From: an uncultured Candidatus Micrarchaeota archaeon
GTDB lineage: Archaea > Micrarchaeota > Micrarchaeia > Norongarragalinales > Norongarragalinaceae
Assembly: GCA_903893865.1 (NCBI GenBank)
Contig: CAITNU010000066.1
Location: 1,094 to 25,093 of the forward strand
DNA length: 24,000 nucleotides
Reading direction: 5' to 3'
The notes below the pieces were generated by a model. That model did not search any database and was not told the DNA's origin. It saw nothing but the letters and a program-made list of their open reading frames with translations. Below are positions 2,386 through 18,432 of the stretch, in pieces. A program made the position numbers and the translations under genes. Numbering within the stretch: position 1 is the stretch's first letter; the number at the start of each line of letters is the position of its first letter.

Positions 2386-2394
2386 GATAAGCCC

Positions 2395-3174
2395 TTACTT
2401 TCTTGTGCTTTTACTTTTTTTTGTTTTCGCGAGCTCGCCGAACTCGGCAAACAACGCCTGCGCCTCGTCTTGAGCGATGACCGCGCGCTCGAGCACGCGC
2501 TTGAACGCTAGACTGACTTTCCGTTTATCCCTAATGCCCGCGGTTTTACTGACGACGTCGGAAAAAAGTTTCTCTAGCGCCCTCCTTTTTTCAGGGGAAG
2601 TGGCTTTATAGATTTCGACGATTTCAGCTGATTCGCTTTCGCCGCGGCGGAACTCGTAAAGCATTACGGCGACGGCGTGCGAGAGATTCATAACGGCGTA
2701 ATCGCCGCTCGTTGGAATGAAAGCGCAGAAATCGCACTCGCTTATCTCGTTTTGCGCTAGCCCGCTATCCTCGGGACCGAAGACGAGCGCGACCCTCTTG
2801 ACTCTCGCATTCTTGGCTTTGTGCGCGGCTTGCGCGGCGCTCACGCAGTTCTTGAACTCAGCGGCGCGAAAACGCGAGGGAACGCCGGTTGTCGCAATCA
2901 CCAAGTCAAACCCTTTAGTTGCGCCTGCAATTTCCTCGAACACGGATGCGCTCTCCGCGAGACGCCAAGCGTGCTTAGCGTACAACCGCGTCTGAAAACC
3001 CATTTTGCAGCGCGGCGAAACCAAGCGCAAGCCCGCGTTGAAGTTCGCGCAAGCGCGCGCGGCAGCGCCCACGTTGAGTTCGTGAATCGGGCGAACGAGA
3101 ACGCAAGTCAACTCCTGCGGTTCTGGAAGTTTCGGCTTGTTTTTCTGCGTTGTTTTCTTTTGCATCGCGTTCAA
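2395..3174 (-). CDS. SPOUT-class RNA 2'-O-methyltransferase (SpoU/TrmJ-like)
   Basis: 259 aa. The C-terminal SpoU knot region VALVFGPEDSGLAQNEISECDFCAFIPTSGDYAVMNLSHAVAVMLYEF and the overall size fit the TrmJ/TrmH family. The substrate cannot be assigned from sequence alone. Confidence 0.75.
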   Translation of the reverse strand: MNAMQKKTTQKNKPKLPEPQELTCVLVRPIHELNVGAAARACANFNAGLRLVSPRCKMGFQTRLYAKHAWRLAESASVFEEIAGATKGFDLVIATTGVPSRFRAAEFKNCVSAAQAAHKAKNARVKRVALVFGPEDSGLAQNEISECDFCAFIPTSGDYAVMNLSHAVAVMLYEFRRGESESAEIVEIYKATSPEKRRALEKLFSDVVSKTAGIRDKRKVSLAFKRVLERAVIAQDEAQALFAEFGELAKTKKSKSTRK

Positions 3175-3216
3175 CCGTGTGAAACCTTTTTTAACGCTCC
3201 GTGGATAACGCTTTTC

Positions 3217-4524: not shown

Positions 4525-4543
4525 ACGCTTGCGGGCGCTTGGA

Positions 4544-4888
4544 ATGAATTTGAACAACCCGTTTTCGATTATAGTTTTTTTCGCCGCCGTTATAATTCTA
4601 TTTTTTATTTCTTCTGGTTGGTTGTTTTCTGACTGCGGTCCTTTTAGTATGATGCAAGACTGCAGACGCGGCCCGAGCCAGCAGGAAACGTGCTTGCAAC
4701 AACTGGCTATGGCAGCAAATTGTTACACCGTCAGCGCTAGCTGGAATCCGCTAGGCGAAGTTTCAGGAGAAGCCGTACCAAAATGCAGGGAAATCAAAAC
4801 CCCTATTGCCGCGTGCTCGAACAATTCTCCTCGAGGAAGTTACTCCACGCAAACCGAAAAATACTGTTGCGGACCGCAGCCAGCTTAG
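4544..4888 (+). CDS. Small Cys-rich secreted/anchored protein, paralog of the pilin at 7317..7637 but with a degenerate leader
   Basis: The start is probably ATG 4544 (MNLNNPFSIIVFFAAVIILFFISSGWLF), though the track gives TTG 4529. Its C-terminal domain shares C-x2-QLA-x3-CY-x4-SWNP(L/V)G, IAAC and a terminal YCCGxxP with ORF 7317..7637. Local GC is lower than in neighbouring genes. Confidence 0.6.
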   Translation: MNLNNPFSIIVFFAAVIILFFISSGWLFSDCGPFSMMQDCRRGPSQQETCLQQLAMAANCYTVSASWNPLGEVSGEAVPKCREIKTPIAACSNNSPRGSYSTQTEKYCCGPQPA

Positions 4889-4897
4889 AAAGCGCCT

Positions 4898-5446
4898 TCA
4901 AATTTTCAGAACATCGTAGCACTTGCGCACCGCAGCGTAATTCTTCGCCGCTACGACTTCGTTGAACCGGCGCTTGATGGCTTTCTCGATGCTCTCAAGC
5001 GTGACGAGCCCGCTCGCCTTCGCGAACGCGCCGAGAATAATAGTGTTCACGAAAGGCGCGCCCAACATTTCTCTAGCTATAGAATAAGCGTCAACCGTCA
5101 AAACACGCGTTCCCTTCGGCGCAGCGAAATCGCCAGCGGCGCGCTTCGTGGCGATGATTGCTATCGTTCCGTTCTTTGTTCCACCAGCGAACGCCGCGTC
5201 CGCCAGCGTCTCGTCGAGAACAAGCAGATAATCAGGCTCGCGCACTTCCTCGTGCAATCGCACGCGCTCGCCTTCTTTCGCGTCAGCGATTCTGCAGAAC
5301 GCCTTCACCGGCGCGCCGCTGCGCTCGGGACCGAACGCTGGAAACGATTGAGCGTTCTTCCCGTCGTTGAACGCTGCGTTCGCAAGAATTTCGCCGCTCG
5401 TCACCGCGCCTTGCCCGCCCCTGCCGTGAAAACGAATTTCAATCAT
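4898..5446 (-). CDS. porG: Pyruvate/2-oxoacid:ferredoxin oxidoreductase gamma subunit
   Basis: [53 protein letters not shown] is the canonical POR/VOR gamma N-terminus. I place the start at ATG 5446 (the homolog-like MIEIRFHG); the track's TTG 5497 adds 17 atypical residues. No alpha, beta or delta subunit genes lie adjacent. Confidence 0.8.
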
Positions 5447-5518
5447 TCTCAAAAACCAAACCAAACCGTCAGAAGTAAATGTTTTCGGCGGCGACAATTT
5501 TAATCCTTGCGTTGTCCG

Positions 5519-7030
5519 TCAAACGACGTCGAAGACGAGTTTGTCGATTTCGATTAACGGCATTTTCCTGATTTGCTCGAACGCGTCCCTAATCTTCTCA
5601 GCGCTGTCGGAGTAAAACGTCGCCACGTGCTGCTTTGCCTTCACTCTCGCGCCTTTCGCGACTTCGAGAACTATTCCCGCTTCCTTGTCGCTCGGCGCGC
5701 CGAGCACTCGCGCAACCCGAGAAAGCGTCTTGTTATCAACGTGCGCGACTACGCCGCTCTCGGCAGCAAACACTTTCTGCGAGTGCTGCGCGAGGCGCAC
5801 GTCGCTCGGCCGAACGCGCGAATCGCCTCCCTGCGCTTCGATGATTTCCCGAAACTTTTCAAGCGCTTTCCCGCTGGCGAGTTGCTGCCTCGCCACTCTA
5901 TAGCCTTCCTGACGCGTTATTCCTTTTACGGCAGCGAGAAGAACGCCGCTCAACGTGCACGCTTTCTCGATCAACGGCGGTTCTTCCTTTCCTTCGAGGA
6001 GTTCAAGCACGCGCCTCGCTTCAAGCGCTGGACCAACGCAATTCATCGCCGGCCCGCTCCCGTCAGTAATAACGCAAGAAACCTCCATGTCCAAATACTT
6101 TCCAAGCGCCTCGAACGCCTTCGCTAGATCGCGCGCTTCATCCACGCTCGCGATTTTCGCGCCGCGGCCGACTGGAATATCGAGCACGACGAACTTCGCG
6201 CCTTCAGCCTTTTTTTTCGCGAGAATGCTCGCGAGGAGAAGCGATTGCGGGTCCAAACGAAGCGGATTGCGGATTTTAATGAGCTTGTCGTCCGCAGCAG
6301 CAATATTCACGGCTCCGCCCCAAATCAAGCAGCCGCCGGTTTTGTTGATAACGCGTTCGGCTTCGCGCACGCTGAGATTCACGGGCGCGAATATTTCCAT
6401 CGCATCCGCGCTCCCGCAAGCGCTGCTAATAGCGCGAGTAGCCGTTTTAGGAATCGTCAACCCCAAGGAAGCGATTATGGGCACGACGAGCATGGACGAG
6501 CGGTCGCCAGCCACGCCGCCTATGCTGTGTTCGGACACGACGGGTTTGCGTTTGCATTTGAGCACTCCGCCGCTCGCGAGAATCGCTTTCGTGAGAAAAA
6601 CCGTTTCCTCCGTATTCAAACCCTTAGTGTAAACGCCGGCGATGAAGGCGGCGCTCTCGGCGGTGCTCAAGTGTTCCTCCATCAAATCGCCGATAATCGC
6701 CTTTATTTCGGCTTCCGCGAGCGTGCCGCCGTCGAGCTTCTTGTGAATGAAATCAAGCGAAGCCGGACGCCGAGCCAAATCCGTCTCGACATTTTGCCCG
6801 TCGCGCGCGCCGAGCGCGCGTGAGACTTCCGCGAACAAACCGATTTCACCTGGCGCGACGAGTTTTTTCGAGTAGTCCACCATTGCGACGACGGTCTTGC
6901 GTCCGACGGTTAAACGCACGCGATCCGAAACGTCGAAATCCAGTTGCCCGCCGTACTTCTCGTTCAACAATGCAACATTCAGCCCGGCTTCCACGTCGAT
7001 TATCTTCGCTTTAAGCTTTACCAAAACCAA
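5519..7030 (-). CDS. deoA: AMP phosphorylase (thymidine phosphorylase family with N-terminal extension)
   Basis: 503 aa, the same length class as archaeal AMP phosphorylase. The N-terminal extension LKAKIIDVEAGLNVALLNE...RVRLTVGRKTV parallels the archaeal enzyme. Core motifs are VSEHSIGGVAGDRSSMLVVPIIASLGLTIPKTATRAISSACGSADAME, CLIWGGAVNIAAADDKL and LASILAKK. The start is TTG. Confidence 0.85.
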   Translation of the reverse strand: MVLVKLKAKIIDVEAGLNVALLNEKYGGQLDFDVSDRVRLTVGRKTVVAMVDYSKKLVAPGEIGLFAEVSRALGARDGQNVETDLARRPASLDFIHKKLDGGTLAEAEIKAIIGDLMEEHLSTAESAAFIAGVYTKGLNTEETVFLTKAILASGGVLKCKRKPVVSEHSIGGVAGDRSSMLVVPIIASLGLTIPKTATRAISSACGSADAMEIFAPVNLSVREAERVINKTGGCLIWGGAVNIAAADDKLIKIRNPLRLDPQSLLLASILAKKKAEGAKFVVLDIPVGRGAKIASVDEARDLAKAFEALGKYLDMEVSCVITDGSGPAMNCVGPALEARRVLELLEGKEEPPLIEKACTLSGVLLAAVKGITRQEGYRVARQQLASGKALEKFREIIEAQGGDSRVRPSDVRLAQHSQKVFAAESGVVAHVDNKTLSRVARVLGAPSDKEAGIVLEVAKGARVKAKQHVATFYSDSAEKIRDAFEQIRKMPLIEIDKLVFDVV

Positions 7031-7098
7031 TCACCCGAGAAACTTACAACCACCAAATCCAGTTCCCGTTTTCGTTTTTCGCTTTCGTTTTTTCGCGT

Positions 7099-7260
7099 TT
7101 GTTTTTGAATAATCCCGCGGCGCTTATTAATTGTTTTTAAATCCCGTGCGAAACACTTCGATAAACCGAATTTTTCTTGTTTTTAACCGTTTTTCCGTTG
7201 TTTTTCAACGCCGCCGCCGTTACTGCCGTTAACCGTCATTACCAGCAACGTTTTTAAATC
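7099..7260. promoter_or_regulatory. Divergent intergenic region with five copies of a TTGTTTTTNA-type motif
   Basis: Copies: ttgtttttga 7099-7108, ttgtttttaa 7131-7140, ttgtttttaa 7177-7186, ttgtttttca 7198-7207 and acgtttttaa 7248-7257. The last copy overlaps a TATA-like TTTTTAAAT (7251-7259), about 58 nt upstream of the pilin ATG. A GGGAGG SD lies at 7301-7306, 10 nt before ATG 7317. Confidence 0.3.
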
Positions 7261-7316
7261 GCCTGCGATTAACCTTTTTTGATAGTTTTAATTGATTTTA
7301 GGGAGGCGGTGCTGTA

Positions 7317-7637
7317 ATGAAGAAAGGACAAGGAACTTTTGAATACATTCTGCTACTCGCAGGAATCCTGCTAATAGTAGTCCTCGCGATAGTCCTGCTT
7401 CGCGGAGGACTGTTCGGAGGCACCTCGAATACCGTTCAAGTTAATTCTTGCAGAAACCAGTTGGCGCAGTCCGGCTGCTACTATGCCAACGGCTCTTGGA
7501 ACCCAGTCGGTGCAGCCGCGCCTTCCATTGCCGCGTGCGCTCCCCTCTATACGGTTCAAGCGGGTAATTGTCCTGCGACTGCTGCAACTGGAGCGGCTAA
7601 TGGCACAGGATATTGCTGCGGTGCGGCACCAGTTTAG
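7317..7637 (+). CDS. Type IV pilin-like protein with class III signal peptide and Cys-rich C-terminal domain (candidate major pilin)
   Basis: MKKG|QGTFEYILLLAGILLIVVLAIVLL matches the archaeal class III signal pattern (basic residue, G/A at -1, Q at +1, E at +5, hydrophobic helix; QxSxExxxL type). It has a strong SD and is followed by a long T-tract. It shares the SWNPxG / IAAC / YCCG domain with 4544..4888. Confidence 0.8.
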   Translation: MKKGQGTFEYILLLAGILLIVVLAIVLLRGGLFGGTSNTVQVNSCRNQLAQSGCYYANGSWNPVGAAAPSIAACAPLYTVQAGNCPATAATGAANGTGYCCGAAPV

Positions 7638-7647
7638 GTAATTCCCG

Positions 7648-7680
7648 TTATTTTTTGTTTTTCTTTTTCCCTTTTCTTTT
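7648..7680 (+). terminator. Oligo-T archaeal-type terminator after the first pilin gene
   Basis: ttattttttgtttttctttttcccttttctttt lies immediately 3' of the stop at 7637. Runs of T are the known archaeal termination signal. Confidence 0.5.
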
Positions 7681-7802
7681 CAAAGCCTAGTCACCAGTGG
7701 GTTTTCCAACCGCTCGAAAAAGCTTTTTTAAGCGCGCGCGAATAGCCTTAATTGCCATTCAAAGTTTTCAAGGCGTTTTCGAAGCATTCCGAGGCGATTG
7801 TT

Positions 7803-7973
7803 TTGGACGACAAGGGACAGGCCGCAGTCGAATACATTCTCTTAGTAGCGTTAGGCTTGTTCCTCATGATAATCGCATTCACGCTCGCGTTCTACGTCAA
7901 ACAATTCACTGATGTAACGCTCAGCGACATTGCCGCGACTCGCAACGAAACCATTTCCATGCTATTCGGCTAA
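7803..7973 (+). CDS. Very small type IV pilin-like protein (class III signal peptide)
   Basis: ...DDKG|QAAVEYILLVALGLFLMIIAFTLAF. The track starts at TTG 7752. I prefer TTG 7803 because GAGG at 7791-7794 sits 8 nt upstream and the leader MDDKG then resembles MKKG of the first pilin. A TATA-like TTTTTTAAG lies at 7724-7732. Confidence 0.65.
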   Translation: MDDKGQAAVEYILLVALGLFLMIIAFTLAFYVKQFTDVTLSDIAATRNETISMLFG

Positions 7974-8003
7974 ACCGCGCGCATCCCCGCTCTTCTCCTC
8001 CGT

Positions 8004-8975
8004 TTGCTTTTAATTCAAACGCGCGCTACTTTTCCTATGCCTGAATCATTAGCCGGTTTAGCTTCGCTCGCGGTTCTCGCGCTCGCCTCGATTGCGGCGG
8101 CGCACCACGACTACCGCTCACGACGCATTCCCAACGCCATTCCTTGGCTCGCGCTCGCCTTCAGCCTCGCTTTCGCGCTGCTCGCTCGCGCGCCGCCGTT
8201 GTATTACGCGCTCGTTCTCGTCGCGTTCGCCTTCGCGCTATTGCTTTATTTCGTCGGCGCTTGGGCCGGGGGGGACGCAAAATTCTTTACCGCGTGCCTT
8301 GCGCTGCTTGCGCTCGCGCGATTCCCAACGCAAATCGCGGACGTGCTTTTGCTGCCTGCAGGCGTTTTCTTGCTCGCCGCGGCGCTTACGGCGCCTTTCG
8401 CGTTGTTTGCGAGGCGCGAGCGCGCGTGGCGAGAACGCCGCGTGCTCGCGGGCGCGTTTGTTGCGAGCGTGAAAGACGCTGTTGGCGGCGCGTTGCTTGC
8501 GGGCTTGGTGCACGCGCTCGGCGTAATCGCGTTTTCTTGGAGCCTTGACGGAATCGTTTCTTCGCTTGCTGCGGGGGCGGCAGGCGTTTTCGCTGCGTCG
8601 TTCGTGTTGCGCGCCGCGTTTTTCGCAGCGGGGCTCTTAAAAGAAAAAATTCCTTTGCAGCAAGTGCGCGAAGGAATCGTGCCGGCGCAAACTCTTTACT
8701 TGGACTCGAACGACGCGCTTCGCTCGTGGGGTTGGCGGGACTCGCTTCGTTCGGCACTGCACGGCGGAAAATCAAGTTTTAAGCCTCGCGGCAGGGTTTT
8801 GTGCGACGCGCGGCGCGCAGCGGGACTCACGGCGCTCGAAGCGCGGGAACTGAAAAAGGTTTTAAAGTCGCGCGGCGTTGGATTCTTGCTCGCGGCAGAT
8901 GCGCTGCCTTTCGCGCCGCAAGTCGGCGCAGCGGCTTTCGCGCTCGCGCTACTGCGTTTCGTTTCGCTGGTTTGA
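8004..8975 (+). CDS. Archaeal type IV prepilin/preflagellin peptidase (A24 aspartic peptidase; FlaK/PibD/EppA-like)
   Basis: The first catalytic Asp context is HHDYRSRRIPNAIPW, after TM1. The second catalytic Asp lies in GAWAGGDAKFF (GxGD type). The C-terminal LPFAPQVGAAAFALALL corresponds to the PFGP-type last helix. The protein is polytopic and Ala/Leu rich. An alternative start is ATG 8037. Confidence 0.85.
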   Translation: MLLIQTRATFPMPESLAGLASLAVLALASIAAAHHDYRSRRIPNAIPWLALAFSLAFALLARAPPLYYALVLVAFAFALLLYFVGAWAGGDAKFFTACLALLALARFPTQIADVLLLPAGVFLLAAALTAPFALFARRERAWRERRVLAGAFVASVKDAVGGALLAGLVHALGVIAFSWSLDGIVSSLAAGAAGVFAASFVLRAAFFAAGLLKEKIPLQQVREGIVPAQTLYLDSNDALRSWGWRDSLRSALHGGKSSFKPRGRVLCDARRAAGLTALEARELKKVLKSRGVGFLLAADALPFAPQVGAAAFALALLRFVSLV

Positions 8976-9025
8976 CGGTTTTTTCGATTTCAGTTTGGTT
9001 TCTTGATTTCGCGCGGGGGATAAAC

Positions 9026-9544
9026 TTGATTTTTTCGAGCGATGCAAAAAGAAAAGCGCAGTTGAGCGTCGAATTCTTTCTCGTCCTGTCGATAATAATC
9101 GCGTTCAGCATGATTTTGTACAACATTTCGCGAAACGAAGTCGCGAGAACAAAAGCGCTCGACGCGGCAGTGATTTCGAAAAGCTCGCTCGACTCGCTCA
9201 CGCAAGCGACCGATTTCGCGGCGTTGAGCGGCAACGGAAGCGCGTTGAACTTAAGCGTCTTCGTTCCGCCGGGAGCGTATTGTTTTTACTACAATACTAC
9301 GCGCAAAGCGTACTTTTGCATCATCGCGAACGTAACCCCGACAACTGCGGGGCAGGTCGGGCAACAATCGTCGGACCAGCAAATGCTTTACATCTACGGC
9401 GCACGCTCGGCTTCAACGCTCCCGAAAAACTTCGATACGCTTTGCGCTAGCACCATCCAGCAAGGCGGGTTGAGCGCGGGTTGGTGGGAGTTGCGCGCGC
9501 AAAGCAACGGCGATTACGTCAACGTCTCGTGCGCGCGCAGGTGA
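9026..9544 (+). CDS. Pilin-like protein with class III signal peptide
   Basis: The track ORF 8801..9544 overlaps the peptidase gene. The in-frame TTG 9026 is preceded by GGGGGA (9015-9020) and gives MIFSSDAKRKA|QLSVEFFLVLSIIIAFSMIL. The mature part has several N-x-S/T sequons and 4 Cys. Confidence 0.7.
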   Translation: MIFSSDAKRKAQLSVEFFLVLSIIIAFSMILYNISRNEVARTKALDAAVISKSSLDSLTQATDFAALSGNGSALNLSVFVPPGAYCFYYNTTRKAYFCIIANVTPTTAGQVGQQSSDQQMLYIYGARSASTLPKNFDTLCASTIQQGGLSAGWWELRAQSNGDYVNVSCARR

Positions 9545-9610
9545 ACAACGCGCCGCGAAAGCGCATGCGAGGCGTAAAATCGTTCAATCGTTTTCAAAAG
9601 GTGTTTTTCG

Positions 9611-10018
9611 TTGGTTTCGTTTTCCCGCGGCCAAGCAAGCATGGAATACGTTTTCATTCTATCCCTCGTTTTAGGCTTCGTTGTGGCGTTGATGATTACA
9701 GGCATACGCGAAAGCGAGTTGAACATGGCTACGGGCTCCGCCCGTGCTGCAGCCGTTTACTGGACTGCAGGCAATTCGTCGTTTTACTTGACTTCGCTTA
9801 ACCACATTCAATCTTGGCGCAGCGTCAACTTTTCGCCCGTGATTTACTCGTGGGCGGGCGGCACAAACAATGGAAGACTCCAACCGCTTCCAAGCGATTT
9901 GAAAAAGCAGATGATAACCGCGGTGCAAAAAACAGTGGCGCCCCTCGCGCCTACGCCGGCAACGTATTGTTTTCAATCAACTAATTTCGATTACTGCATC
10001 GTCGACTCGATACCGTGA
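9611..10018 (+). CDS. Pilin-like protein with class III signal peptide
   Basis: MVSFSRG|QASMEYVFILSLVLGFVVALMI. An AAGGTG SD at 9598-9603 lies 7 nt before TTG 9611. Confidence 0.75.
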   Translation: MVSFSRGQASMEYVFILSLVLGFVVALMITGIRESELNMATGSARAAAVYWTAGNSSFYLTSLNHIQSWRSVNFSPVIYSWAGGTNNGRLQPLPSDLKKQMITAVQKTVAPLAPTPATYCFQSTNFDYCIVDSIP

Positions 10019-10087
10019 AAAAACGCTGAAAAAAATCTGAACACGCCTAACACTCGAAAAACGAACGCTCGAAAATCGCTGAGAGGA

Positions 10088-10714
10088 TTGCCGCGCTTGC
10101 CAACGAAACAATTGAAAGCGAAAGCAAAACCGAACCACTTCAACAACGCTGCGGCGGCGCCGCAGCGCTTGCAACAGCTCCTGCAGGTTTTGCTTTTAAT
10201 CATGCTCGCATCCAGCGTGGCGCTCTCTTTTTCCGCGCCAGCTGCGGCGTGGCTCGCGCTCGCGATTTTCGCAATCGCCGCGTTCGCCGTCGCTTTGCGC
10301 TTGCCTGAAAGCGAACGCCGCGCAGGCCTCGCGCTCGCCGTCTTGCTTTTCGCTTTGTCCGCATTCTTCGTTTTCTTCGCCTCGCTCGGCGGCGAACTCT
10401 ACCAAAAAATTTTTCTCGTTCCGCTTTTCATCGCCGTTTTTCTCGCATTCTTCATCGCTGCTCGCCGCTTTCTCTTCTCCGCGCCAGCCAAAGCGCGCGT
10501 GCTCGCTTGCACTAAAAACTGGGTTGTAGTGCGCGTTGAACGCGGTTCGCTCGCGAGCGAAGCCGCGCCCGGAGTCTACGCAGCTCGCTGCGCAGAGCGC
10601 CGCGCGGGCAACGCGCGCAGTCTCAAGGAAGACGATTTGGTTCTCGTGCGGTTTCAAGCGAAAGGCTTGCTCGGACGACTCGGCGTTGGCGAACGCGAGG
10701 CGGTAATCGATTGA
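10088..10714 (+). CDS. Hypothetical membrane protein (about 4 TM helices plus a ~75 aa C-terminal beta-rich soluble domain)
   Basis: Hydrophobic segments include AAWLALAIFAIAAFAVAL, LALAVLLFALSAFFVFFASL and IFLVPLFIAVFLAFFIAA. The C-terminal region is KARVLACTKNWVVVRVERGSL...DDLVLVRFQAKG (OB/NfeD-like pattern, tentative). The start is uncertain (TTG 10088 or ATG 10202). The stop overlaps the next start (TTGA). Confidence 0.5.
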   Translation: MPRLPTKQLKAKAKPNHFNNAAAAPQRLQQLLQVLLLIMLASSVALSFSAPAAAWLALAIFAIAAFAVALRLPESERRAGLALAVLLFALSAFFVFFASLGGELYQKIFLVPLFIAVFLAFFIAARRFLFSAPAKARVLACTKNWVVVRVERGSLASEAAPGVYAARCAERRAGNARSLKEDDLVLVRFQAKGLLGRLGVGEREAVID

Positions 10715-11154
10715 ACCCCGCCAAAAATCAAGAACAAAAAAATCCGTTAAACGCCGCGAACCACCAACAACGGTTAGCGTTGTTTTGCGCCGCGCTATCG
10801 CTCGCGTGCCTAGCCGCAATCGCGTTATTCGTTCGCTCGACTCCGCCCATCGAAAGCGACGTCGCTCTTCTCAGCTCGCAGGACGAAGGCTCCTTCATCG
10901 CAGCAACAGGCAAACTCGCGGCGCCGCGTTACAGCGCGAGCAGCGGAAGCTTCAGCGGAATGCTCTGCCAAAGCGCCTGCATTTCCTTCTTCATCTCGCC
11001 GCAACTCGCTAACGAAATAACGAGCTCGAGAATCGATTTGCGAACACTGCGCTCCGGCGCGAGACTCCGAGTCGAAGGCATTTTACGCGAAGACGCGCGC
11101 GGACTGGAAATCGAAGTTGAAACGCCGAACGGACTCGAACTGCTATCGAGCTAA
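10711..11154 (+). CDS. Hypothetical N-terminally TM-anchored protein with OB-fold-like domain
   Basis: A TM helix LALFCAALSLACLAAIALFV follows a polar N-terminus. Next comes GSFIAATGKLAAPRYSASSGSFSGMLCQSACISFFI...LRSGARLRVEGILREDARGLEIEV, an alternating beta pattern typical of OB-fold barrels (tentative). The TTG start overlaps the previous stop by 4 nt. Confidence 0.5.
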   Translation: MNPAKNQEQKNPLNAANHQQRLALFCAALSLACLAAIALFVRSTPPIESDVALLSSQDEGSFIAATGKLAAPRYSASSGSFSGMLCQSACISFFISPQLANEITSSRIDLRTLRSGARLRVEGILREDARGLEIEVETPNGLELLSS

Positions 11155-11184
11155 CGCGTTCCGAACTAGCGCGTTCCGAGTTGA

Positions 11185-12522
11185 TTGTTTTTGGATTTCT
11201 TTGCAGTTCTTTTCGCTTTCTTCTCGGGCTTCGCCGCGGGCGTTTCCGGCGCGCTTCCGTTCGTGCACACGAACAACGTTCTAGCCGCGTTCGCATCCAT
11301 CGATTTTGGTGCGTTCAGCACGCCGATCGCAGCAAGCGTATTCGCAGTCGCGCTATCGTTTTCGCACCTCGCGTTCGAAACGATTCCCGCGCTGTTTCTC
11401 GCGCTGCCCGCTCAAAACCAGTCAGTTGTCGCGTTGCCAGCGCAGCGACTCGTCCTGCAAGGCCGCGCAGAACACGCGCTTTTTCTGATAAGCCGCTCGC
11501 TCTTCCTCGCGCTCCTCGCGAGCTTGTGCCTCGCGCCCCTAGCGCTTTTCGCGCTGCCAACGCTTTTCGCAGCAGCGAAACCGTTTTCCGCGCTAGCGTT
11601 GATTGCGATAGTCGCGCTCGCGGTAGCGCGCGAGCGGGGCGGCGAGCACGATGCGCGCGATGGGAGCGAAACGCTTGCTGGACGCGCCGAGCGCGCCGGG
11701 CTAGCGAGACGTGCGAAGCGCGTCGCGCTCGCAATCGGCGTTTTCGTTTTAAGCGGCGCGGTTGGCTTCGCGGCGCTAACGCTGCCCGTCTGCCGTCAGC
11801 CGTTGTTTCCGCTGCTTGCCGGACTTTTCGGCGTGCCTGCAGTGCTTTTTTCTTTCGGCGCGAAACCGGAGAAACTAAAAACCGAAGTGGATGACGGCGG
11901 AAACGCGTTTTCGTTGCAGGCGGCCAAGCCCGTTGATTGGCGGCTCGTGCTCGCGGGCGTTCTAGTCGGCGCGTTGAGCGTGCTTTTCCCCGCGCTCAGC
12001 CCCGCGTTGTTGTGCGGCGCGATCTTCTTTTTCCTCGAGTCCGACGCGGAAGCGTTTCTCGAAGCCAGCAGCGCGCTCGTTGCAGCAAAAATGTTTTTCG
12101 ATTTCGCGGGCGTGTTCGCAATAGGCAAAGCGCGTTCGGGCGCGGCCGCGTTCGCGCTCGAAGCGTTCGCTTCGCAACGCGCTGCGGCGTCGCTCGCGGA
12201 CTACGCGCTCGTTTGCGTCGCAGCGCTCGCCGCGCTCGCGCTCGGACTCGCGCTGCTGTTGGCGTTGCGCAAGCGCTTCGCCGCGTTTTTCCTGCGCGTT
12301 TCCGGAAACGCTTTTTCCGCTTCGCTCTTGGTTTTAGTAGCGCTCGGCTCGCTTGCGTTTTCCGGTTGGGGCGGACTCCTCGTTCTCGCTGCGGCAGGCG
12401 CAGCCGGCTGCGTCGCGCCGTTGCTTGGATTGAAGCGGAGTTACGCTATGGGCGCGTTGTTCGTTCCGTCGATTTTGTTCTCTCTCGGCGCCACGGGCGG
12501 CGTTGCGCAGTTGTTTTATTAA
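11185..12522 (+). CDS. Polytopic membrane protein, TctA/DUF112-like (tentative)
   Basis: 445 aa, about 10-12 TM helices. The N-terminal GFAAGVSGALPFVHTNNVLAAF resembles the G..G..PG(I/V)H.N motif of archaeal DUF112/TctA-family proteins. A second-half echo LAGVLVGALSVLFPALSPALL suggests an internal repeat. It is not T2SSF/FlaJ-like, having no ~100 aa helical cytoplasmic domains. Confidence 0.5.
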   Translation: MFLDFFAVLFAFFSGFAAGVSGALPFVHTNNVLAAFASIDFGAFSTPIAASVFAVALSFSHLAFETIPALFLALPAQNQSVVALPAQRLVLQGRAEHALFLISRSLFLALLASLCLAPLALFALPTLFAAAKPFSALALIAIVALAVARERGGEHDARDGSETLAGRAERAGLARRAKRVALAIGVFVLSGAVGFAALTLPVCRQPLFPLLAGLFGVPAVLFSFGAKPEKLKTEVDDGGNAFSLQAAKPVDWRLVLAGVLVGALSVLFPALSPALLCGAIFFFLESDAEAFLEASSALVAAKMFFDFAGVFAIGKARSGAAAFALEAFASQRAAASLADYALVCVAALAALALGLALLLALRKRFAAFFLRVSGNAFSASLLVLVALGSLAFSGWGGLLVLAAAGAAGCVAPLLGLKRSYAMGALFVPSILFSLGATGGVAQLFY

Positions 12523-12569
12523 TCAGCGCGGTAACGCAGTAGGCGGTTTTACGCAATAGGCGATTCTGC

Positions 12570-13055
12570 TTGACTGAATTGACGAAAGAAAAAAATGGGA
12601 AACACAAGGCTCAGGTTTCCGTCGAACTCTTCCTAGGCATGACGTTCTTCCTGTTAGTGCTTTACTGGATGAACCACTTCGTCGCGACTCAACGCGACGC
12701 AAGCACCACGCTCGTCGACCAGGAAAAACTCGTTGCCGCCTCGCTCGCGCAAATAGCGAACTCGGTTTGCGCGTCGAACACTTCCGTTGATTACGTTCTG
12801 CCTTGCATTTACCTTGAAGGACGCGACGTGAATTACTCGCTTGGCGCGGGCGGCGATAACGTCATTCGCATTATTCCCGAACGGGCGGGCGCGCTTTCGG
12901 CGCAGCAGGCCGCGTTATGCAATTTTTCTGCTGTAGCCGTGAAGGCGCGCTGCGTGACCGCAAACGGCGAAAAAAATGCGGGAATTGTTTGCGTGAACGC
13001 TTCCTCAGAAGGAGGCGTCCGGCGCGTTGGCGTTTCAAGCGGAGAGTGCGAATAA
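12570..13055 (+). CDS. Pilin-like protein with class III signal peptide
   Basis: MTELTKEKNGKHKA|QVSVELFLGMTFFLLVLYWM. The mature domain has 7 Cys. It is the first of four translationally coupled genes. Confidence 0.7.
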   Translation: MTELTKEKNGKHKAQVSVELFLGMTFFLLVLYWMNHFVATQRDASTTLVDQEKLVAASLAQIANSVCASNTSVDYVLPCIYLEGRDVNYSLGAGGDNVIRIIPERAGALSAQQAALCNFSAVAVKARCVTANGEKNAGIVCVNASSEGGVRRVGVSSGECE

Positions 13056-13492
13056 TGGTTTTACGACAAACGGAAAGACGAAACGAAAAGCGCGGGGCCG
13101 CTCGGCGGGCGCAGTTGTTGAGCGTTGATTTTCTCGTCGCAGTCTCGATTCTCGCGGTGTGCGTGGGCGCGATTATGCAGTTCAACGAATTCTCGCATTC
13201 GCGCGCCGAACTCGCGGCGTTTCTCGCGAACAACAAGGCGGAATCGATAGCCGCACTCATTCACGATGAAGGTTTTCAAGCGGTTCCGCCAAACACTGAA
13301 TACTGCGCCCGCCACGTGTTTTTAGAAGGCGGCGTGCAGCAAATCCAGGAAGTATTTGGCGATTGCTCCGGTTTTTCTTGCAGCAGCCGCGGTGTTTTCT
13401 CCGCGAGACGCCTCGAATCCTGCGTTCCTTCGCCTACCGCAACGCCAGTGCCTTCGCCCGTCGCATGCGTTTTGGAGGTTAGAGCTTGTTAA
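13055..13492 (+). CDS. Pilin-like protein (variant class III signal peptide)
   Basis: ATG 13055 overlaps the preceding TAA (TAATG). The product begins MVLRQTERRNEKRGAARRA|QLLSVDFLVAVSILAVCVGAI. The track ORF 12917.. is a 5' over-extension into the previous gene. Confidence 0.6.
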   Translation: MVLRQTERRNEKRGAARRAQLLSVDFLVAVSILAVCVGAIMQFNEFSHSRAELAAFLANNKAESIAALIHDEGFQAVPPNTEYCARHVFLEGGVQQIQEVFGDCSGFSCSSRGVFSARRLESCVPSPTATPVPSPVACVLEVRAC

Positions 13493-13929
13493 CGCCGCTG
13501 AAGCGATTTGCAATCAAGCGCAGTCGCGCGTTCATCTTCACTATCGACGCGCTTTTCGCTCTCGCGCTCGTTTCAACGCTCGTCACGCTGTTCGCTTTCG
13601 CTTACCTCCCGCCCGCCAGAAACGAAAAATTTTTCGAGCTCGAACAACTCGGCTTCGACTCGCTCGCGCTCGAATACAACGAAACGAATTCAGTACAGCT
13701 CAGCAACGCTGAATTCTTTGCTTTGACTAGATTTCAACGCTTCGGCAACGCGAGCGACGCGGAAAACGCGGGCGCGAACACCATCGCGAGAGCGCGGTTT
13801 TACCACTACCCGTCGTTGTGCAATTGCGAGGCGTTTCCCTGTATTACGTCACGGGACGACGGAAACCTATCTGCCAGCGATCTCGGTTCTAGCAACGAAA
13901 ACTATTCTGAAGTTTGGGTGACGCCCTAA
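13486..13929 (+). CDS. Pilin-like protein (RA|F-type class III signal peptide)
   Basis: MLTPLKRFAIKRSRA|FIFTIDALFALALVSTLVTLFAF. The TTG start overlaps the previous gene by 7 nt. Confidence 0.6.
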   Translation: MLTPLKRFAIKRSRAFIFTIDALFALALVSTLVTLFAFAYLPPARNEKFFELEQLGFDSLALEYNETNSVQLSNAEFFALTRFQRFGNASDAENAGANTIARARFYHYPSLCNCEAFPCITSRDDGNLSASDLGSSNENYSEVWVTP

Positions 13930-14496
13930 ATGTTTTCAAAAATTTCTTTTCCAAAAACGTTTTCGCGCAAACGCGCGTTCACGTCAACGCTAATCGCGGT
14001 CCTCGCAATCGTCTTCATCAGCGGCATCGCGGCGGTGCTAATCGCTTCGTCGGCCCAGCAGCGCGCGCTCCTCTCGTCCTTCGAATCGCGCAAAGTAGCC
14101 AACCACTTCGCAAACTCGGTTTCGTTCCTCAACGCTTCCTTCCGCGACGCTTTGCTCGACTACGAATTCGCGAGCACGGGGTGCGGTGGCTCAGGAGCGC
14201 CGAACTTTGAGGATTTAAGCGACGGCTATCTGTCGGCGGCGGCGCGCGAACTCAATTCAAGCGGGGTATACACGAGCTACTCGAATCTGGTCACTCAAAC
14301 TAGCGAACCTGATGAAGTAATGCCGGGGTTCGATGAGGCATTCGTCACTAATGCGACGTTCGACTTATTCGTCAATTATGGCAGTGCAAGAAAAAACGAG
14401 TCCGTCTTCCTCGAACAAAGAATAGACGTGAACAACACGGGCGCAGGCGAGTGGACGGCGAACGTCAGCGGATTCGAAATAACGGTTACGTGCTAA
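13930..14496 (+). CDS. Pilin-like protein (RA|F-type class III signal peptide)
   Basis: MFSKISFPKTFSRKRA|FTSTLIAVLAIVFISGIAAVLIA. The ATG immediately follows the previous stop (TAAATG). Confidence 0.6.
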   Translation: MFSKISFPKTFSRKRAFTSTLIAVLAIVFISGIAAVLIASSAQQRALLSSFESRKVANHFANSVSFLNASFRDALLDYEFASTGCGGSGAPNFEDLSDGYLSAAARELNSSGVYTSYSNLVTQTSEPDEVMPGFDEAFVTNATFDLFVNYGSARKNESVFLEQRIDVNNTGAGEWTANVSGFEITVTC

Positions 14497-14704
14497 TGCG
14501 TTTTATTGCGCCGAACCCCACGTTTTCGCGTTTCCTTTTCTGCAGCGCGGTTTCGGAATCGTTTGGAAGCGCGGGCTTGGGAATCGCTTTTAAATGAGCG
14601 TGCGCTTAAAATTTAAGGGTTAAAACGGAAGCACGCCTAAGTAAACTAAAGGTGTTTTTACGGACTCGTTCAAATCGGTTGTCGCGCTTGCGGGCTTAAT
14701 AGTC

Positions 14705-15256
14705 GTGCTAATGCTCGCCTACTCGATCCTGCCAAAACCAGAAACGAAAACAACCAGCAACGACGCCTACACGCTGTTGTTGAACGACTTGGCGCAGCAA
14801 GGCATCGCTCGAGACGAGATTCAAATCTTCAACTTTACTGGCAGCGGCGGCGTGTGGACTACGGACGTAATCGTAACGCGCGCGCCGCACTCGAAATGCC
14901 CGACTTCTGAAAAACGCTCTTACTCCGACGTTCTTTCGTTCAAGTACCGGCCAGAACAATTAATCAAAGACTGTGCCGAGCGCTCGCCGATTGTGCTGCG
15001 CGAAGAAGCGATAATCGATTCGGGCGTTATCCCGCAAACAGCCGGCGCGGATTACGCGTGCGCTTTCTCCGCCGAGGAAATCGCGCACTACGACAACGAC
15101 GAGGCGCTCGCTTACTGCCCGCTAGTTTCGTCCGCCGACCTCTTGTCTTTCGCCCAAGACGTTCCAACCGGGTCGTGGGCAATCCAGTGGAACAAGAACG
15201 ACGCGACGATTTTCGTCGCCTTGGATGCGTACGGAAACGTGCTGAAAACATCTTAA
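14705..15256 (+). CDS. Hypothetical N-terminally anchored extracytoplasmic protein
   Basis: 183 aa from GVG-free canonical start GTG 14705. The hydrophobic helix continues upstream of this start in the same frame (..FKSVVALAGLIVVLMLAYSIL), so the real start may be non-canonical near 14660 (see findings). I recognise no family. Confidence 0.5.
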   Translation: MLMLAYSILPKPETKTTSNDAYTLLLNDLAQQGIARDEIQIFNFTGSGGVWTTDVIVTRAPHSKCPTSEKRSYSDVLSFKYRPEQLIKDCAERSPIVLREEAIIDSGVIPQTAGADYACAFSAEEIAHYDNDEALAYCPLVSSADLLSFAQDVPTGSWAIQWNKNDATIFVALDAYGNVLKTS

Positions 15257-15356: not shown

Positions 15357-16661
15357 GTGGTTTTAATGGGTTTCGTCCGCCTCGGCTGCAAGCCAAACGA
15401 AAACGACTTGGTCGCGGAATACTACTTCGAGCCGGCGCGAGGCGTTACGCCGAAATACGCTTGCGAACAACTCGCCGCGGAAAGCTCTATCGGAACGTGG
15501 ACGGCAATCGCGACTCTCAAACCGCGAACTGCAGCGCGCCTCGCACCAAAAATTTTTCACCTCAAACGGCGCGGCGCGGGCTTCGTCGCGCGCATCGCTT
15601 ACCCAGACGAGCTTTTCGAAGCGGGTAGCGCGCCGCAGTTGATGAGCGCGATAGCCGGAAACGTTTTCGGCATGCGCGTGGTCGATTCGCTTCGCCTGAA
15701 CGATTTTACTTTGACGAAAACGCTGATCAACGCCTTCAAGGGCCCGCAACTCGGCATTTCAGGAGTCCGTAAAATGCTTCGCGTTCCGCGCCGCCCATTG
15801 TGTGGCACGATAATCAAACCGAAAGTCGGCTTGAACGAGCGAGAACACGCCGGCGTTGCTTACGATTGCTGGGTTAACGGACTCGACCTCGTGAAAGACG
15901 ATGAGAATCTCACGAGCATGCGATTCAATAATTTCGAGAAACGGCTCGCAGCCACGCTTGAAGCAATGGACCGCGCACAAAGCGAAACTGGCGAACGCAA
16001 GCTGTACGTCTGCAACGTCTCTGCGGAAACGAACGAGATGCTGCGCCGCGCACAACTCGTGAAAGACAACGGCGGAAACGTGACGATGATCGATATCCTC
16101 ACGTGCGGATGGAGCGCGTTGCAAACGCTGCGCGACGCGAACCTGCGGCTCGTTATTCACGCGCACCGCGCGGGGCACGCTGCGCTCACGCGCAACCCGC
16201 GCCACGGAATCAGCATGCTCGCCATCGCAAAACTCTCTCGCCTAATCGGAGTCGACTCGCTGCACGTCGGCGCGATTTACGGGAAAATGGAAGGCAACGC
16301 AAGCGAAGTCCTCGAACTCGTAAAAGAAATTCAGAGCCCGCGAGTTGCGAAAGACGAAGCGCAAGGCGCGCTCGAGCAAAACTGGTTCGGGCTCGCGCCT
16401 GTTTTCGCCGTCGCGAGCGGCGGATTGCACCCAGGCGTGCTCCCGCAAGTCGTTGCCGCGATGGGCAACGACGTGTTTCTTCAGGCGGGAGGCGGAGTCA
16501 GTGGGCATCCGGACGGCGTCGCTGCAGGCGCGAGGGCAACCCGACAGGCCATTGATGCCGTAAGCGCTGGAGTTCCTTTGCGTGAATACGCTTTTGAGCA
16601 CGTCGAGTTAAAGCGCGCGCTGGAAAAGTGGGAAACAACCTCGCCTAAGAGCGGGAAATAA
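15357..16661 (+). CDS. rbcL: Ribulose-1,5-bisphosphate carboxylase/oxygenase large subunit, archaeal form III type
   Basis: All catalytic motifs are present: GNVFGM, GTIIKPKVGL, DLVKDDENL (the carbamylated Lys and the metal ligands), IHAHRAGHAALTR, DSLHVGA..GKMEG, VASGGLHPG and QAGGGVSGHP. No small-subunit gene is present. The length (~431-434 aa) fits form III. An alternative start is ATG 15366. Confidence 0.9.
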   Translation: MVLMGFVRLGCKPNENDLVAEYYFEPARGVTPKYACEQLAAESSIGTWTAIATLKPRTAARLAPKIFHLKRRGAGFVARIAYPDELFEAGSAPQLMSAIAGNVFGMRVVDSLRLNDFTLTKTLINAFKGPQLGISGVRKMLRVPRRPLCGTIIKPKVGLNEREHAGVAYDCWVNGLDLVKDDENLTSMRFNNFEKRLAATLEAMDRAQSETGERKLYVCNVSAETNEMLRRAQLVKDNGGNVTMIDILTCGWSALQTLRDANLRLVIHAHRAGHAALTRNPRHGISMLAIAKLSRLIGVDSLHVGAIYGKMEGNASEVLELVKEIQSPRVAKDEAQGALEQNWFGLAPVFAVASGGLHPGVLPQVVAAMGNDVFLQAGGGVSGHPDGVAAGARATRQAIDAVSAGVPLREYAFEHVELKRALEKWETTSPKSGK

Positions 16662-16698: not shown

Positions 16699-18309
16699 AT
16701 GGCCAGACTGAGATGTATTGTATTTTTTGTTGTTTTCATTTTACTATACTCTGTTAATTTTATTCGCGCTGAAAGTTTTGGTCCTCTGCATCCAACGTTT
16801 TTGAATTATTTCGGCAGCCCAATTTCAACTTACGGATCGCCTTCAAACTCGATTGATAATGCTATATTTGACCAATCGACATATTGGCGTTTTATAGGCG
16901 AAGGAAACTATGGCGCTGATTTTTCTTTGCCCATTCAACAAGGTGTTCCTAATTGTATAACTATTTATACAGTAAGTTCTGGTAATAAAGAAATTTTTTT
17001 AAAAACTAATTCTGAAAATTATGTTTTTGTTTATTCTGTTGAACCTGGTAACGGCGAGCTATTCCACTCAGGCTCACTGTGTGGCTCAAATTATCTTCAA
17101 CAAGATAATTCAATAATAGTTAGCGTTCGTTTAAATGAACGAGGCGCTACTCACTACCTTCACGACGTCGCCATTTCTTATACGGTATTCGCTCCATCTC
17201 CAAGCCCATCACCCAGTCCAAATCCAGCACCTAGCTCAAGTCCGTCATCTAATCCGTCGCCGTCTGCAGACGCTTCAACGACTCCGACTCCAATTGCGAG
17301 CGCGGCACCAACGCCGACAGTGACTGCAACGCCTACGGAAACGCCGTCTATAACGCCAACTCCGACGTCCAGTGCCACGCCGACTGCAAGTGCGAGCGCG
17401 ACAACGAGCGCAAGCGCAACGCCTTGCGCTACTCCTTCGGCAACGATTACGCCGACGACGACTGCAACGCCAACGGTTTGGGTGACGCTAACGCCTATGC
17501 CCTCACTGGCTTCGCTTACGACGTCGCCTTGCGCGACTCCGCGCGCCTCGCCTTCAGCTTTCGCTGCGTCTCGCGTCGCTGTGGACATTCGTTGCGCGAA
17601 CGAGTTTGAAATCGGAACGCAGCGCGTCGTCGTTTTCGTGGACGGTTCGCCAGCGCACGGCGTCTTGTGGCTCGACGACGGCGCGGGAAGCAGGTTCGAA
17701 CGCTTTCTGGAAACGGACGGTTCGACGCAATTCTTTTTCTCTACGCCAGGCGAGTGGACGCTCGGCTTCGCCGACGCAACGAAAAAAGTTCGCGTGAAAG
17801 AGAAAAACGTTTTCGCTGCACCAACTCTCGCGGAATTAAGCGGCTCAAAAGGAGGAGCGAACGGAGCGGGAGGCGCGGGAACGGGCGCATCAAACGCGTT
17901 GACCGGATTCTTCAACTGGGGCGTGAGTCCCGAGTGGATTGCCGTAGCGGTGCTGTTCTTAGCGCTCGCGGGCGTCGCGTACTATCGCATTTATTATTCC
18001 GCGTCAAGACTCCGCAAATCGTTCGACGGAAAAAGAGTGCGCTTGGAATTAAGCGCCGGGCGAGGCGATTTGAACGGCGTGATTTTAGTCGATTACGCGC
18101 CCGAGGAAGCGGTCGCCGCCTCGTTTTCCGAAAAACCGAGCGTTAGCGAAACTGTTACGGGAAAAGTGTTCAAGTGGCGGCGCGAAACGCTGGCCGCGGG
18201 AGAAGCGTGGGTAATCGAATACGATTTGCGCGAAGTTGACGGCGAGCGGCTGAAGAAAGCGGAAGCTTTCTGCGATTCCGGCGGCAAGCGCTTGAACCTA
18301 TTTTCTTGA
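16699..18309 (+). CDS. Large surface protein: signal peptide, AT-rich-encoded N-terminal domain, Pro/Ser/Thr linker, beta-rich domain, TM helix, ~100 aa cytoplasmic tail domain
   Basis: The signal peptide is MARLRCIVFFVVFILLYSVNFIRAES. The linker runs PSPSPSPSPNPAPSS...TPTVTATPTETPSITPTPTSS. The TM helix is WIAVAVLFLALAGVAYYRIYY, followed by SRLRKSFDGKR. I recognise no family. Confidence 0.7.
   Translation: MARLRCIVFFVVFILLYSVNFIRAESFGPLHPTFLNYFGSPISTYGSPSNSIDNAIFDQSTYWRFIGEGNYGADFSLPIQQGVPNCITIYTVSSGNKEIFLKTNSENYVFVYSVEPGNGELFHSGSLCGSNYLQQDNSIIVSVRLNERGATHYLHDVAISYTVFAPSPSPSPSPNPAPSSSPSSNPSPSADASTTPTPIASAAPTPTVTATPTETPSITPTPTSSATPTASASATTSASATPCATPSATITPTTTATPTVWVTLTPMPSLASLTTSPCATPRASPSAFAASRVAVDIRCANEFEIGTQRVVVFVDGSPAHGVLWLDDGAGSRFERFLETDGSTQFFFSTPGEWTLGFADATKKVRVKEKNVFAAPTLAELSGSKGGANGAGGAGTGASNALTGFFNWGVSPEWIAVAVLFLALAGVAYYRIYYSASRLRKSFDGKRVRLELSAGRGDLNGVILVDYAPEEAVAASFSEKPSVSETVTGKVFKWRRETLAAGEAWVIEYDLREVDGERLKKAEAFCDSGGKRLNLFS
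17191..17559 (+). repeat. Low-complexity Pro/Ser/Thr/Ala linker-coding region
   Basis: There are ~120 codons of reiterated (P/A)(S/T) units (gcaacgcc/acgccgac-type repeats). This region generates the spurious antisense ORF 17178..17915. Confidence 0.8.
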
Positions 18310-18432
18310 AAAGCGCTTTGCGCGAACCGCTGTGAGCGGGGACGGGCAGGCGTAAACTGCGAGCGCGCGGCGATCGTGCGTAGAGCGCGGGTTTTTTATT
18401 TAAGCTACGGGTAACGAGTTCAGGTGATTGAA

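Follow-up and report, generated by a model that had tools for sequence, protein, structure and literature searches.

A pilus operon of a known kind in a new form, with a built-in OB-fold/TctA-like module and a minor-pilin set of its own, is encoded in the stretch of DNA from an uncultured, tiny and symbiotic Candidatus Micrarchaeota (DPANN) archaeon analysed here (24,000 nucleotides of contig CAITNU010000066.1, hereafter the window). It comprises 13 tightly packed genes, g1 to g13, all on the + strand between positions 7317 and 15256. I consider it an evenly balanced proposition that this locus supplies the pilins, the peptidase and the accessory proteins of an Epd-like type IV pilus (T4P) fused with a nucleic-acid-uptake module. 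That g7, g8 and g9-g13 work as one functional module together with the pilus appears rather likely, and the assignment of nucleic acid as the cargo is tentative, falling just short of an even call.

Relatives of the cluster were collected as 80 archaeal loci from a genome scan with TctA-like proteins and 50 loci from a metagenome scan with the peptidase family, and these loci (referred to by L numbers) were tagged with hidden Markov models (HMMs) built from each window gene. The closest relatives of the window proteins and the closest genomic loci were all labelled Micrarchaeota. A preliminary description of this DNA had placed all genes between 7317 and 14496 on one strand, and every gene in that interval is indeed on the + strand; the conserved cluster is one gene longer and ends with g13 at 15256. 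The genes are as follows, with class III leaders written so that the slash marks the cleavage site:

7317-7637, + strand: g1, 106 amino acids (aa), leader MKKG/QGTFEY, Cys-rich C-terminal domain, above the PF04021 cut-off
7803-7973, + strand: g2, very short pilin of 56 aa, leader MDDKG/QAAVEY; the mechanical open reading frame (ORF) start is 7752
8037-8975, + strand: g3, A24 aspartic prepilin peptidase, long form, 312 aa, at least seven hydrophobic segments by hydropathy
9026-9544, + strand: g4, pilin-like, leader KRKA/QLSVEFF, start taken from orthologues, family kept in at least eight loci
9611-10018, + strand: g5, pilin-like, leader MVSFSRG/QASMEY, sub-threshold PF04021 match (18.9 bits), conserved
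10088-10714, + strand: g6, membrane protein with four transmembrane (TM) helices and a C-terminal domain of ~70 aa by hydropathy, optional cluster member
10711-11154, + strand: g7, a single TM helix at the N-terminus and then an OB fold of the nucleic-acid-binding (anticodon-binding) type
11185-12522, + strand: g8, polytopic permease of the TctA/DUF112 family, 445 aa, ~11 TM helices
12570-13055, + strand: g9, minor-pilin-like, leader KHKA/QVSVELF
13055-13492, + strand: g10, minor-pilin-like, leader ARRA/QLLSVDF, present in 15 genome loci and in metagenome loci
13486-13929, + strand: g11, minor-pilin-like, leader RSRA/FIFTIDA, conserved
13930-14496, + strand: g12, minor-pilin-like and the largest of these, leader RKRA/FTSTLIA, conserved
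14654-15256, + strand: g13, conserved Cys-rich, exported and signal-anchored protein of ~190 aa with invariant Cys and Trp residues, last gene of the cluster

Likely corrected starts were judged from orthologues for g2 (7803, giving 56 aa), g3 (8037), g4 (9026) and g10 (13055).

The OB-fold/TctA pair and its conserved neighbourhood

The middle of the cluster had been described as three uncharacterised membrane proteins, a label that still fits g6 and no longer fits g7 or g8. What g7 and g8 turn out to be is the most telling feature of the locus. Within the g7 family, 9 of 15 members matched PF01336 (best E 3.5e-13) and 7 of 15 matched PF13742, and the family profile retrieved the anticodon-binding OB domains of AspRS and AsnRS from the PDB. 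The AlphaFold2 (AF2) model of g7 (predicted local distance difference test, pLDDT, 85) has a helix at 13-42 followed by a beta-barrel, for which Foldseek returned the OB domains of AspRS and LysRS (E ~1e-5, probability 1.0). This OB domain probably faces outwards, because the N-terminus is rich in K/R and the barrel carries a conserved Cys pair. One of 15 g7 relatives additionally showed a weak match to DUF4131, the OB domain of ComEC (E 0.009). A profile search with the g7 family gave matches only from Micrarchaeota and Altiarchaeales. In an exhaustive HMM search of 1.84 billion representative proteins the g7 OB profile gave 3681 matches, the best of which were proteins of 300-1500 aa containing 3-9 tandem copies of this OB domain.

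The g8 gene starts 31 nt after the end of g7, and its product matched PF01970 over residues 9-422 of 445 (E 3.6e-23; orthologues 1e-19 to 3e-27). The AF2 model (pLDDT 81; predicted template modelling score, pTM, 0.82) is an all-helical, transporter-like bundle that had no significant match in the PDB and no T2SSF-like fold. TctA-like relatives of g8 were present in 80 archaeal genomes, and those of Methanomicrobiales genera other than Methanoculleus aligned over the full length at 26-30% identity. When 13 diverse archaeal TctA-like proteins served as a search profile, none of the 14 matches came from Methanococcus, in a search whose word index was swamped by Ala/Leu-rich sequences. According to Pfam, TctB (PF07331) and TctC/Bug (PF03401) are absent from every window gene, and no locus protein matched the ComEC competence domain (PF03772) or the ComEA helix-hairpin-helix. 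The g6 family had no Pfam or NCBIfam match and was found in a minority of loci (L003, L004, L012, L085, L089, L091, L105), on which grounds it was rejected both as a TctB and as a T2SSF protein. NCBIfam gave no match for any of the 10 locus proteins scanned. The suggestion that one of the embedded membrane proteins might be a divergent T2SSF platform failed: g6, g7 and g8 all lack PF00482, whereas the T2SSF genes of L012 and L086, serving as controls, scored between 1e-25 and 7e-15, and g8 was rejected as such a candidate by its full-length TctA match and the lack of a T2SSF-like fold match.

A gene pair of the same kind has been studied in Methanococcus maripaludis. In a transposon screen followed up by in-frame deletions, the adjacent genes MMJJ_13020 and MMJJ_13030 were each essential for natural transformation, as were the Epd pili (PMC10133366). 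The annotation of MMJJ_13020 is that of an OB-fold nucleic-acid-binding protein with a single TM helix, and that of MMJJ_13030 is a member of the TctA family with 11 TM helices; a TctA-like homologue was essential in Methanoculleus thermophilus too, and the authors put forward the TctA-like protein as the archaeal DNA transporter that had been missing (PMC10133366). Both families, the architecture and the adjacency recur in the g7/g8 pair.

A synteny comparison across relatives, as envisaged in the preliminary description, was run and showed that the cluster recurs in the order g1(xn)-g2-g3-g4-g5-(g6)-g7-g8-g9-g10-g11-g12-g13 in 22 loci when the window itself and a handful of probable duplicates are counted in. 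Colinearity of g1-g13 extended over 15 genome loci and at least 14 metagenome loci. The block g7-g8-g9-g10-g11-g12-g13 does not vary within Micrarchaeota, with g9 directly after g8 in all loci long enough to show it, and the block is kept even where no peptidase or major pilins are adjacent (L006, L008, L009, L010, L017). By comparison, a class III cluster beside TctA was found in none of 65 TctA-like loci of Aenigmatarchaeota, Woesearchaeota, Archaeoglobi, Methanomicrobiales, Thermoplasmata and Halobacteria. An OB+TctA pair outside Micrarchaeota occurs in L055 of Altiarchaeota (4913-12649), with a convergent three-gene class III cluster 3.4-6 kb away; one of these class III proteins is 525 aa long and carries repeated Cys-rich motifs. 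Two loci of the clade 1 type, L121 and L129, encode an ATPase, two T2SSF proteins and a peptidase and have no OB/TctA block, so the block is an add-on to an Epd-like operon. A linkage of TctA-like genes with pilin operons was not found in the literature searched, and TctA, DUF112 and OB-fold go unmentioned in Makarova et al. 2016 and in the paper on the micrarchaeon Mia14 (PMC5498576).

The position of the OB/TctA pair between pilin genes, mid-operon in about 20 loci, would also be expected if both proteins were structural or biogenesis parts of the pilus, such as an anchor, an assembly factor or a glycosylation factor, and the transformation defect in Methanococcus were secondary. Since the piliation of the Methanococcus mutants was not examined (PMC10133366), the pair might act in pilus biogenesis and not in transport. 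I regard this as quite improbable: the two canonical clade 1 type loci do without the pair, the Methanococcus pair lies far from both epd loci and went unreported in earlier pilus-gene deletion work, and TctA-like genes are widespread in archaea without pilin neighbours.

Some relatives carried additional genes around the cluster. L001 (1226-8104) has four tandem secreted paralogues of ~230 aa and a NosD-like surface protein of 1321 aa inserted between g2 and the peptidase, which may be adhesins of the same operon. In L010 (2-3490) a LamG-like (Laminin_G_3) protein is followed by an unusually long T2SSF-domain protein of 726 aa, ~6 kb upstream of the stand-alone g7-g13 block; LamG-like proteins have been linked to pilus loci in the Mia14 paper (PMC5498576). 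Judged from sequence motifs, a SecD/SecF-type protein of 560-650 aa is encoded directly upstream of the TctA-like gene in L015, L016, L022, L025, L030 and L065 (Aenigmatarchaeota or unclassified), and L007 of Micrarchaeota (664-3305) has SecD/SecF genes ~5 kb upstream of the cluster.

Pilin-like genes, prepilin peptidase and the probably displaced motor

Eight products had been described as having class III N-termini, which both the enrichment of the motif and the family-level conservation of each leader confirmed. A crude finder for class III motifs, set against a background of 67 unrelated archaeal loci (26 matches in 6952 ORFs), marked 8 proteins in the locus where 0.23 were predicted (Poisson P ~2e-10). 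The motif [KR][GA]/Q-x-x-x-E, with Q at +1 and E at +5, was present in all members of the g1 (34/34), g2 (34/34) and g9 (40/40) families and in 10 of 11 members of the g4 family, while the g5 family had Q at +1 in 21/21 and an acidic residue at +5 in 21/21 (E in 19, D in 2). The g10 family combined [KR][GA]/Q with D at +6 (24/24) and the g11 family [KR][GA]/F with D at +6 (22/25); the g12 family has [KR][GA]/F and a D or E at +4 to +7 in 0 of 24 members. Gln at +1 is common to six of the eight pilin families.

Only g1 exceeded the Pfam threshold among the eight (PF04021, 32.4 bits at a cut-off of 23.7, E 8e-8), and it is the probable major pilin; orthologues were found in L001, L004, L007, L012 (four paralogues), L014 and many metagenome loci. 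Matches of g2 and g5 to PF04021 were sub-threshold and the five other leader proteins had no match. The small g2 protein also matched TadE weakly, and its orthologues of 55-56 aa begin at the equivalent Met.

The identification of g3 as an A24 peptidase was upheld by its PF01478 score (35.9 bits at a cut-off of 26.5, E 1.1e-8), by the alignment of both Asp motifs with FlaK (PDB 3S0X) and by the invariance of D25 and D80 in 8/8 orthologues. The g3 orthologues in L012 and L086 also matched Arc_PepC (PF06819) above threshold.

At the other end of the cluster, g13 belongs to the best-conserved family after g8 (15 genome loci, E down to 1e-84), and none of its 15 members matched a Pfam family. The gene has no canonical start (ATG, GTG, TTG) upstream of 14705, where the first one occurs (region 14643-14707), yet reading in frame from 14654 (VFTDSFKSVVALAGLIVV...) gives a match to the signal-anchor helix in g13 orthologues. 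This could reflect initiation at a non-canonical codon (GTT or ATA), an error in sequencing or truncation of the protein at its N-terminus. In L040 (24-728) and L096 (167-967), which are probably from the same population, the order is rearranged and g13 is located upstream of g1 instead of at the cluster end.

The reported lack of an assembly ATPase and a platform protein in the 24 kb held up: a Pfam scan found neither T2SSE nor T2SSF in any substantial ORF of the window, and all Walker A motifs fell into short or spurious frames and none into a credible gene. The premise that known archaeal T4P, including Epd, keep their motor beside the pilins was wrong, as the epd loci are ~200 kb apart. 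In M. maripaludis JJ, the epd pilin/eppA locus is at 754-762 kb and epdJKL at 967-970 kb (PMC10133366, Table 1), and major pilins of this T4P clade are typically stand-alone genes (PMC4858521).

Relatives of the cluster provided the missing genes. In L012, L086 (on a contig of 281 kb), L091 and L130 the genes directly upstream, in the same orientation, encode one ATPase of the T2SSE family (E 3e-43 to 8e-50) and two T2SSF proteins (E 1e-25 to 7e-15), and on eight truncated contigs (L084, L092, L093, L094, L100, L101, L104, L105) the pilin genes directly adjoin a T2SSF gene. AMP phosphorylase takes the motor position in the window and in L004 and L083, the two loci closest to it, and other genes take it in L001, L007, L087 and L108. 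Because orthologous operons carry ATPase and platform genes, the pilus system has a canonical motor; it is very probable that the operon was split in the window lineage and that the motor genes of a canonical T4P were displaced from the locus. The absence of ATPase and platform is thus ordinary operon splitting, as already documented for Epd pili.

The preliminary description had offered two alternatives, of which the pilin depot served by a distant motor was essentially right. The other, a genuinely motor-less and non-canonical filament or surface system that assembles class III proteins, agrees with the absence of T2SSE and T2SSF from the window and likewise from L007, L087 and L108, with up to 9.5 kb of upstream sequence. 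It is nonetheless very unlikely, because the same operon carries its motor genes in the relatives listed above, the truncated contigs with T2SSF included; the separation of pilins and motor is already known for Epd, and T4P motors have been reported in Micrarchaeota genomes.

Proposed nucleic-acid uptake and the surroundings of the cluster

In the mechanism proposed here, g3 would cleave the leaders of the eight prepilins, and an ATPase and platform encoded elsewhere in the genome would polymerise g1/g2 into a pilus that is primed or tipped by g9-g12 as a four-member minor-pilin set, of which three carry the conserved acidic residue and g12 does not. The filament would capture extracellular nucleic acid and carry it to the cell surface, where the outward OB domain of g7 would bind it and pass it, or its breakdown products, to g8 for import. 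The main payoff would be nucleotide scavenging by an organism that is probably unable to make nucleotides, with gene transfer as a by-product. The micrarchaeon Mia14 has no purine or pyrimidine biosynthesis, and the cluster is bracketed by genes for archaeal AMP/nucleotide-salvage enzymes, namely AMP phosphorylase (5519-7030, - strand) and form III RuBisCO (15357-16661, + strand). An AMP phosphorylase gene was found at most 10 kb from the TctA-like gene in 11 of 82 loci from two distant lineages, 5 of Micrarchaeota and 6 of Methanomicrobiales (loci noted in this context are L004, L005, L008, L010, L017 and L083, and for Methanomicrobiales L028, L035, L039, L052, L057 and L074). This proximity is suggestive, being far above the expectation for a single-copy gene, with a count that ignores inherited synteny. 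In its fullest form, the proposal would make the Micrarchaeota operon a complete nucleic-acid-uptake machine, consisting of an Epd-like pilus, a four-pilin tip, an outward OB receptor for DNA and a TctA-like functional counterpart of ComEC, that serves mainly for feeding on environmental or host DNA and RNA; I hold this version to be possible but rather doubtful.

Several points weigh against the fusion of an Epd-like pilus with a nucleic-acid-uptake module. The link to MMJJ_13020/13030 is one of shared Pfam families, architecture and adjacency. TctA is a family of secondary transporters for small carboxylates, and the g8 model has no obvious relation to a known DNA channel; the locus contains no ComEC competence domain or nuclease. 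OB folds can also bind oligosaccharides or proteins. The motor would lie elsewhere in this genome, as judged from the relatives, and the metagenome loci were counted without taxonomic assignment. Furthermore, DPANN pili are usually discussed as host-attachment organelles, and the piliation of the transformation mutants, as mentioned above, was not examined in PMC10133366.

The alternative with a different cargo is a host-adhesion pilus combined with a bindosome-like importer, in which g8 is a TctA-type transporter for a small host metabolite and g9-g12, perhaps together with g7 and g13, are class III-anchored binding or accessory subunits that replace TctB and TctC. Such an importer would account for a full-length TctA protein in the absence of TctB and TctC, and for g9-g12 always being beside g8 even without an adjacent peptidase or major pilins. 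DPANN archaea depend on host metabolites and pili-like host connections have been described, and the TctA-like genes of other archaea have unrelated neighbours. Nevertheless, I consider the importer unlikely. A Pfam scan of 77 members of the g4, g5 and g9-g12 families found no solute-binding-protein domain and only PF04021 and a few DUFs, and g9-g12 were consequently rejected as solute-binding proteins. They are also small (mature lengths of ~110-180 aa), and their conserved Q at +1 and acidic residue at +5 or +6, with one member that lacks this residue, is the signature of filament-forming minor pilin sets. The OB fold of g7 is of the nucleic-acid-binding type, and a gene pair of the same families is needed for DNA uptake in Methanococcus.

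An archaeal counterpart of ComEC has not been identified, and the sole candidate is the TctA-like protein with its OB partner, based on knock-outs in two methanogens (PMC10133366). That OB and TctA genes are hard-wired into the pilus operon of a distant lineage is independent evidence, from genomic context, for a physical cooperation between the pair and the pilus, and it makes g9-g13 further candidate uptake components, which can be tested in the genetically tractable Methanococcus. Nucleic-acid uptake through this operon would offer a concrete route of nucleotide acquisition for genome-reduced DPANN that are unable to make nucleotides, and would parallel the competence machinery conserved in Patescibacteria, the bacterial counterparts of DPANN. 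Should the complete uptake machine be real, TctA-like proteins would have evolved independently into another, second class of translocases for DNA or oligonucleotides.

Upstream of the cluster, one further feature was predicted by direct reading of the sequence:

7250-7306, + strand: predicted promoter and ribosome-binding site of g1

It consists of a TATA-like A/T-rich box (TTTTTAAAT, 7250-7258) and GGGAGG at 7301-7306, ~10 nt 5' of the g1 ATG, which form a putative promoter and ribosome-binding region. Further upstream, the - strand encodes the AMP phosphorylase, a POR gamma-type subunit, a SpoU methylase, a NUDIX protein and a GNAT acetyltransferase, and a PEP synthase/PPDK gene, also on the - strand, runs off the left window edge. 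An ORF at 356-1369 (+) overlaps this real gene on the opposite strand and was rejected. A 119-aa ORF outside of the cluster (4529-4888, +) was flagged by the crude class III motif finder for its N-terminus MRA/LGMNLNNPFSIIVFFAAVIILFFI; it had no family match and may encode a signal anchor rather than a prepilin.

Downstream, the form III RuBisCO gene is followed by genes for two large exported proteins, a DUF655 protein, an SLT-domain protein, an FMN reductase and a glutaredoxin. The two large exported or membrane proteins (16699-18309 and 18424-19557, +), directly 3' of RuBisCO, had no homologues in any related locus; one is without a family and the other has only a Pur_ac_phosph_N domain (purple-acid-phosphatase N-terminal, FN3-like). 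The lytic transglycosylase (SLT) domain of the protein at 21591-22430 (+) is of a peptidoglycan-cleaving type, here encoded by an archaeon, and may be relevant to an interaction with bacterial or pseudomurein-bearing neighbours. No tRNA genes were found in the window.

Comparison with known systems

The tripartite TctABC transporters share with g8 the PF01970 family over the full length, and differ from the locus in having TctB and TctC partners, which are absent from the window; archaeal TctA-like proteins come without TctB and TctC and have 11 instead of 12 TM helices (PMC10133366). The Sulfolobus bindosome (Bas) resembles the importer alternative in that class III proteins serve a membrane transporter and form no long filament. 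Unlike the locus, in which no binding-protein domains were seen, it has as its substrates large proteins that bind sugars for ABC transporters, and BasE/BasF serve it as a dedicated motor.

By analogy only, the ComG/Pil pseudopilus with ComEA and ComEC offers the same set of parts as the locus, namely a filament, minor pilins, an anchored DNA-binding protein and a polytopic membrane protein, and ComEC has an OB-fold domain (DUF4131) at its start. This is not homology: the locus has no competence, metallo-beta-lactamase or helix-hairpin-helix domain, and g8 is from a secondary-transporter family. The tip sets GspH/I/J/K, FimU/PilV/W/X and ComGD-G are likewise matched by g9-g12 in being four distinct, co-conserved and adjacent pilin-like genes, three of them with the conserved acidic residue near the mature N-terminus and the largest without it. 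Loss of the acidic residue in GspK and PilX is comparable to g12. In contrast to these minor pilin tip sets, to which g9-g12 have no detectable sequence similarity, g10 and g11 have their acidic residue at +6 and not at +5.

Further parallels are found in the methanogens. The MMJJ_13020/13030 pair and SAMN04488571_104187, the TctA-like protein of Methanoculleus thermophilus, share with g7/g8 the annotated families, the adjacency (in the MMJJ pair) and the connection to type IV pili, and the MMJJ pair has the same layout of a single TM helix with an OB fold and a permease of ~11 TM helices. The MMJJ pair has not been reported beside pilin genes.

For the pilus itself, the features of the locus point tentatively to an Epd-like pilus of the Methanococci-type 'clade 1' (Makarova et al. 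2016), and the micrarchaeon Mia14 has a Methanococci-type T4P whose key components are common to many Micrarchaeota (PMC5498576). As in the locus, Epd prepilins are cleaved before Gln (KG/Q, RA/Q), which applies to all five EppA substrates (PMC4371748, Table 1), and a long-form A24 peptidase is encoded inside a pilin locus together with several minor pilins. The motor of Epd comprises one ATPase (EpdL) and two TadC/T2SSF paralogues (EpdJ/K), as in the operons of the relatives, and can be encoded apart from the pilin/peptidase locus. Two differences stand out. The DUF2341 adhesins and the FleN/MinD gene of Epd were not seen in the locus, and the locus unites in one operon what Epd does not: the OB/TctA pair, four further pilin-like genes and g13 accompany the pilins here, whereas the Methanococcus pair resides at a third, separate locus.

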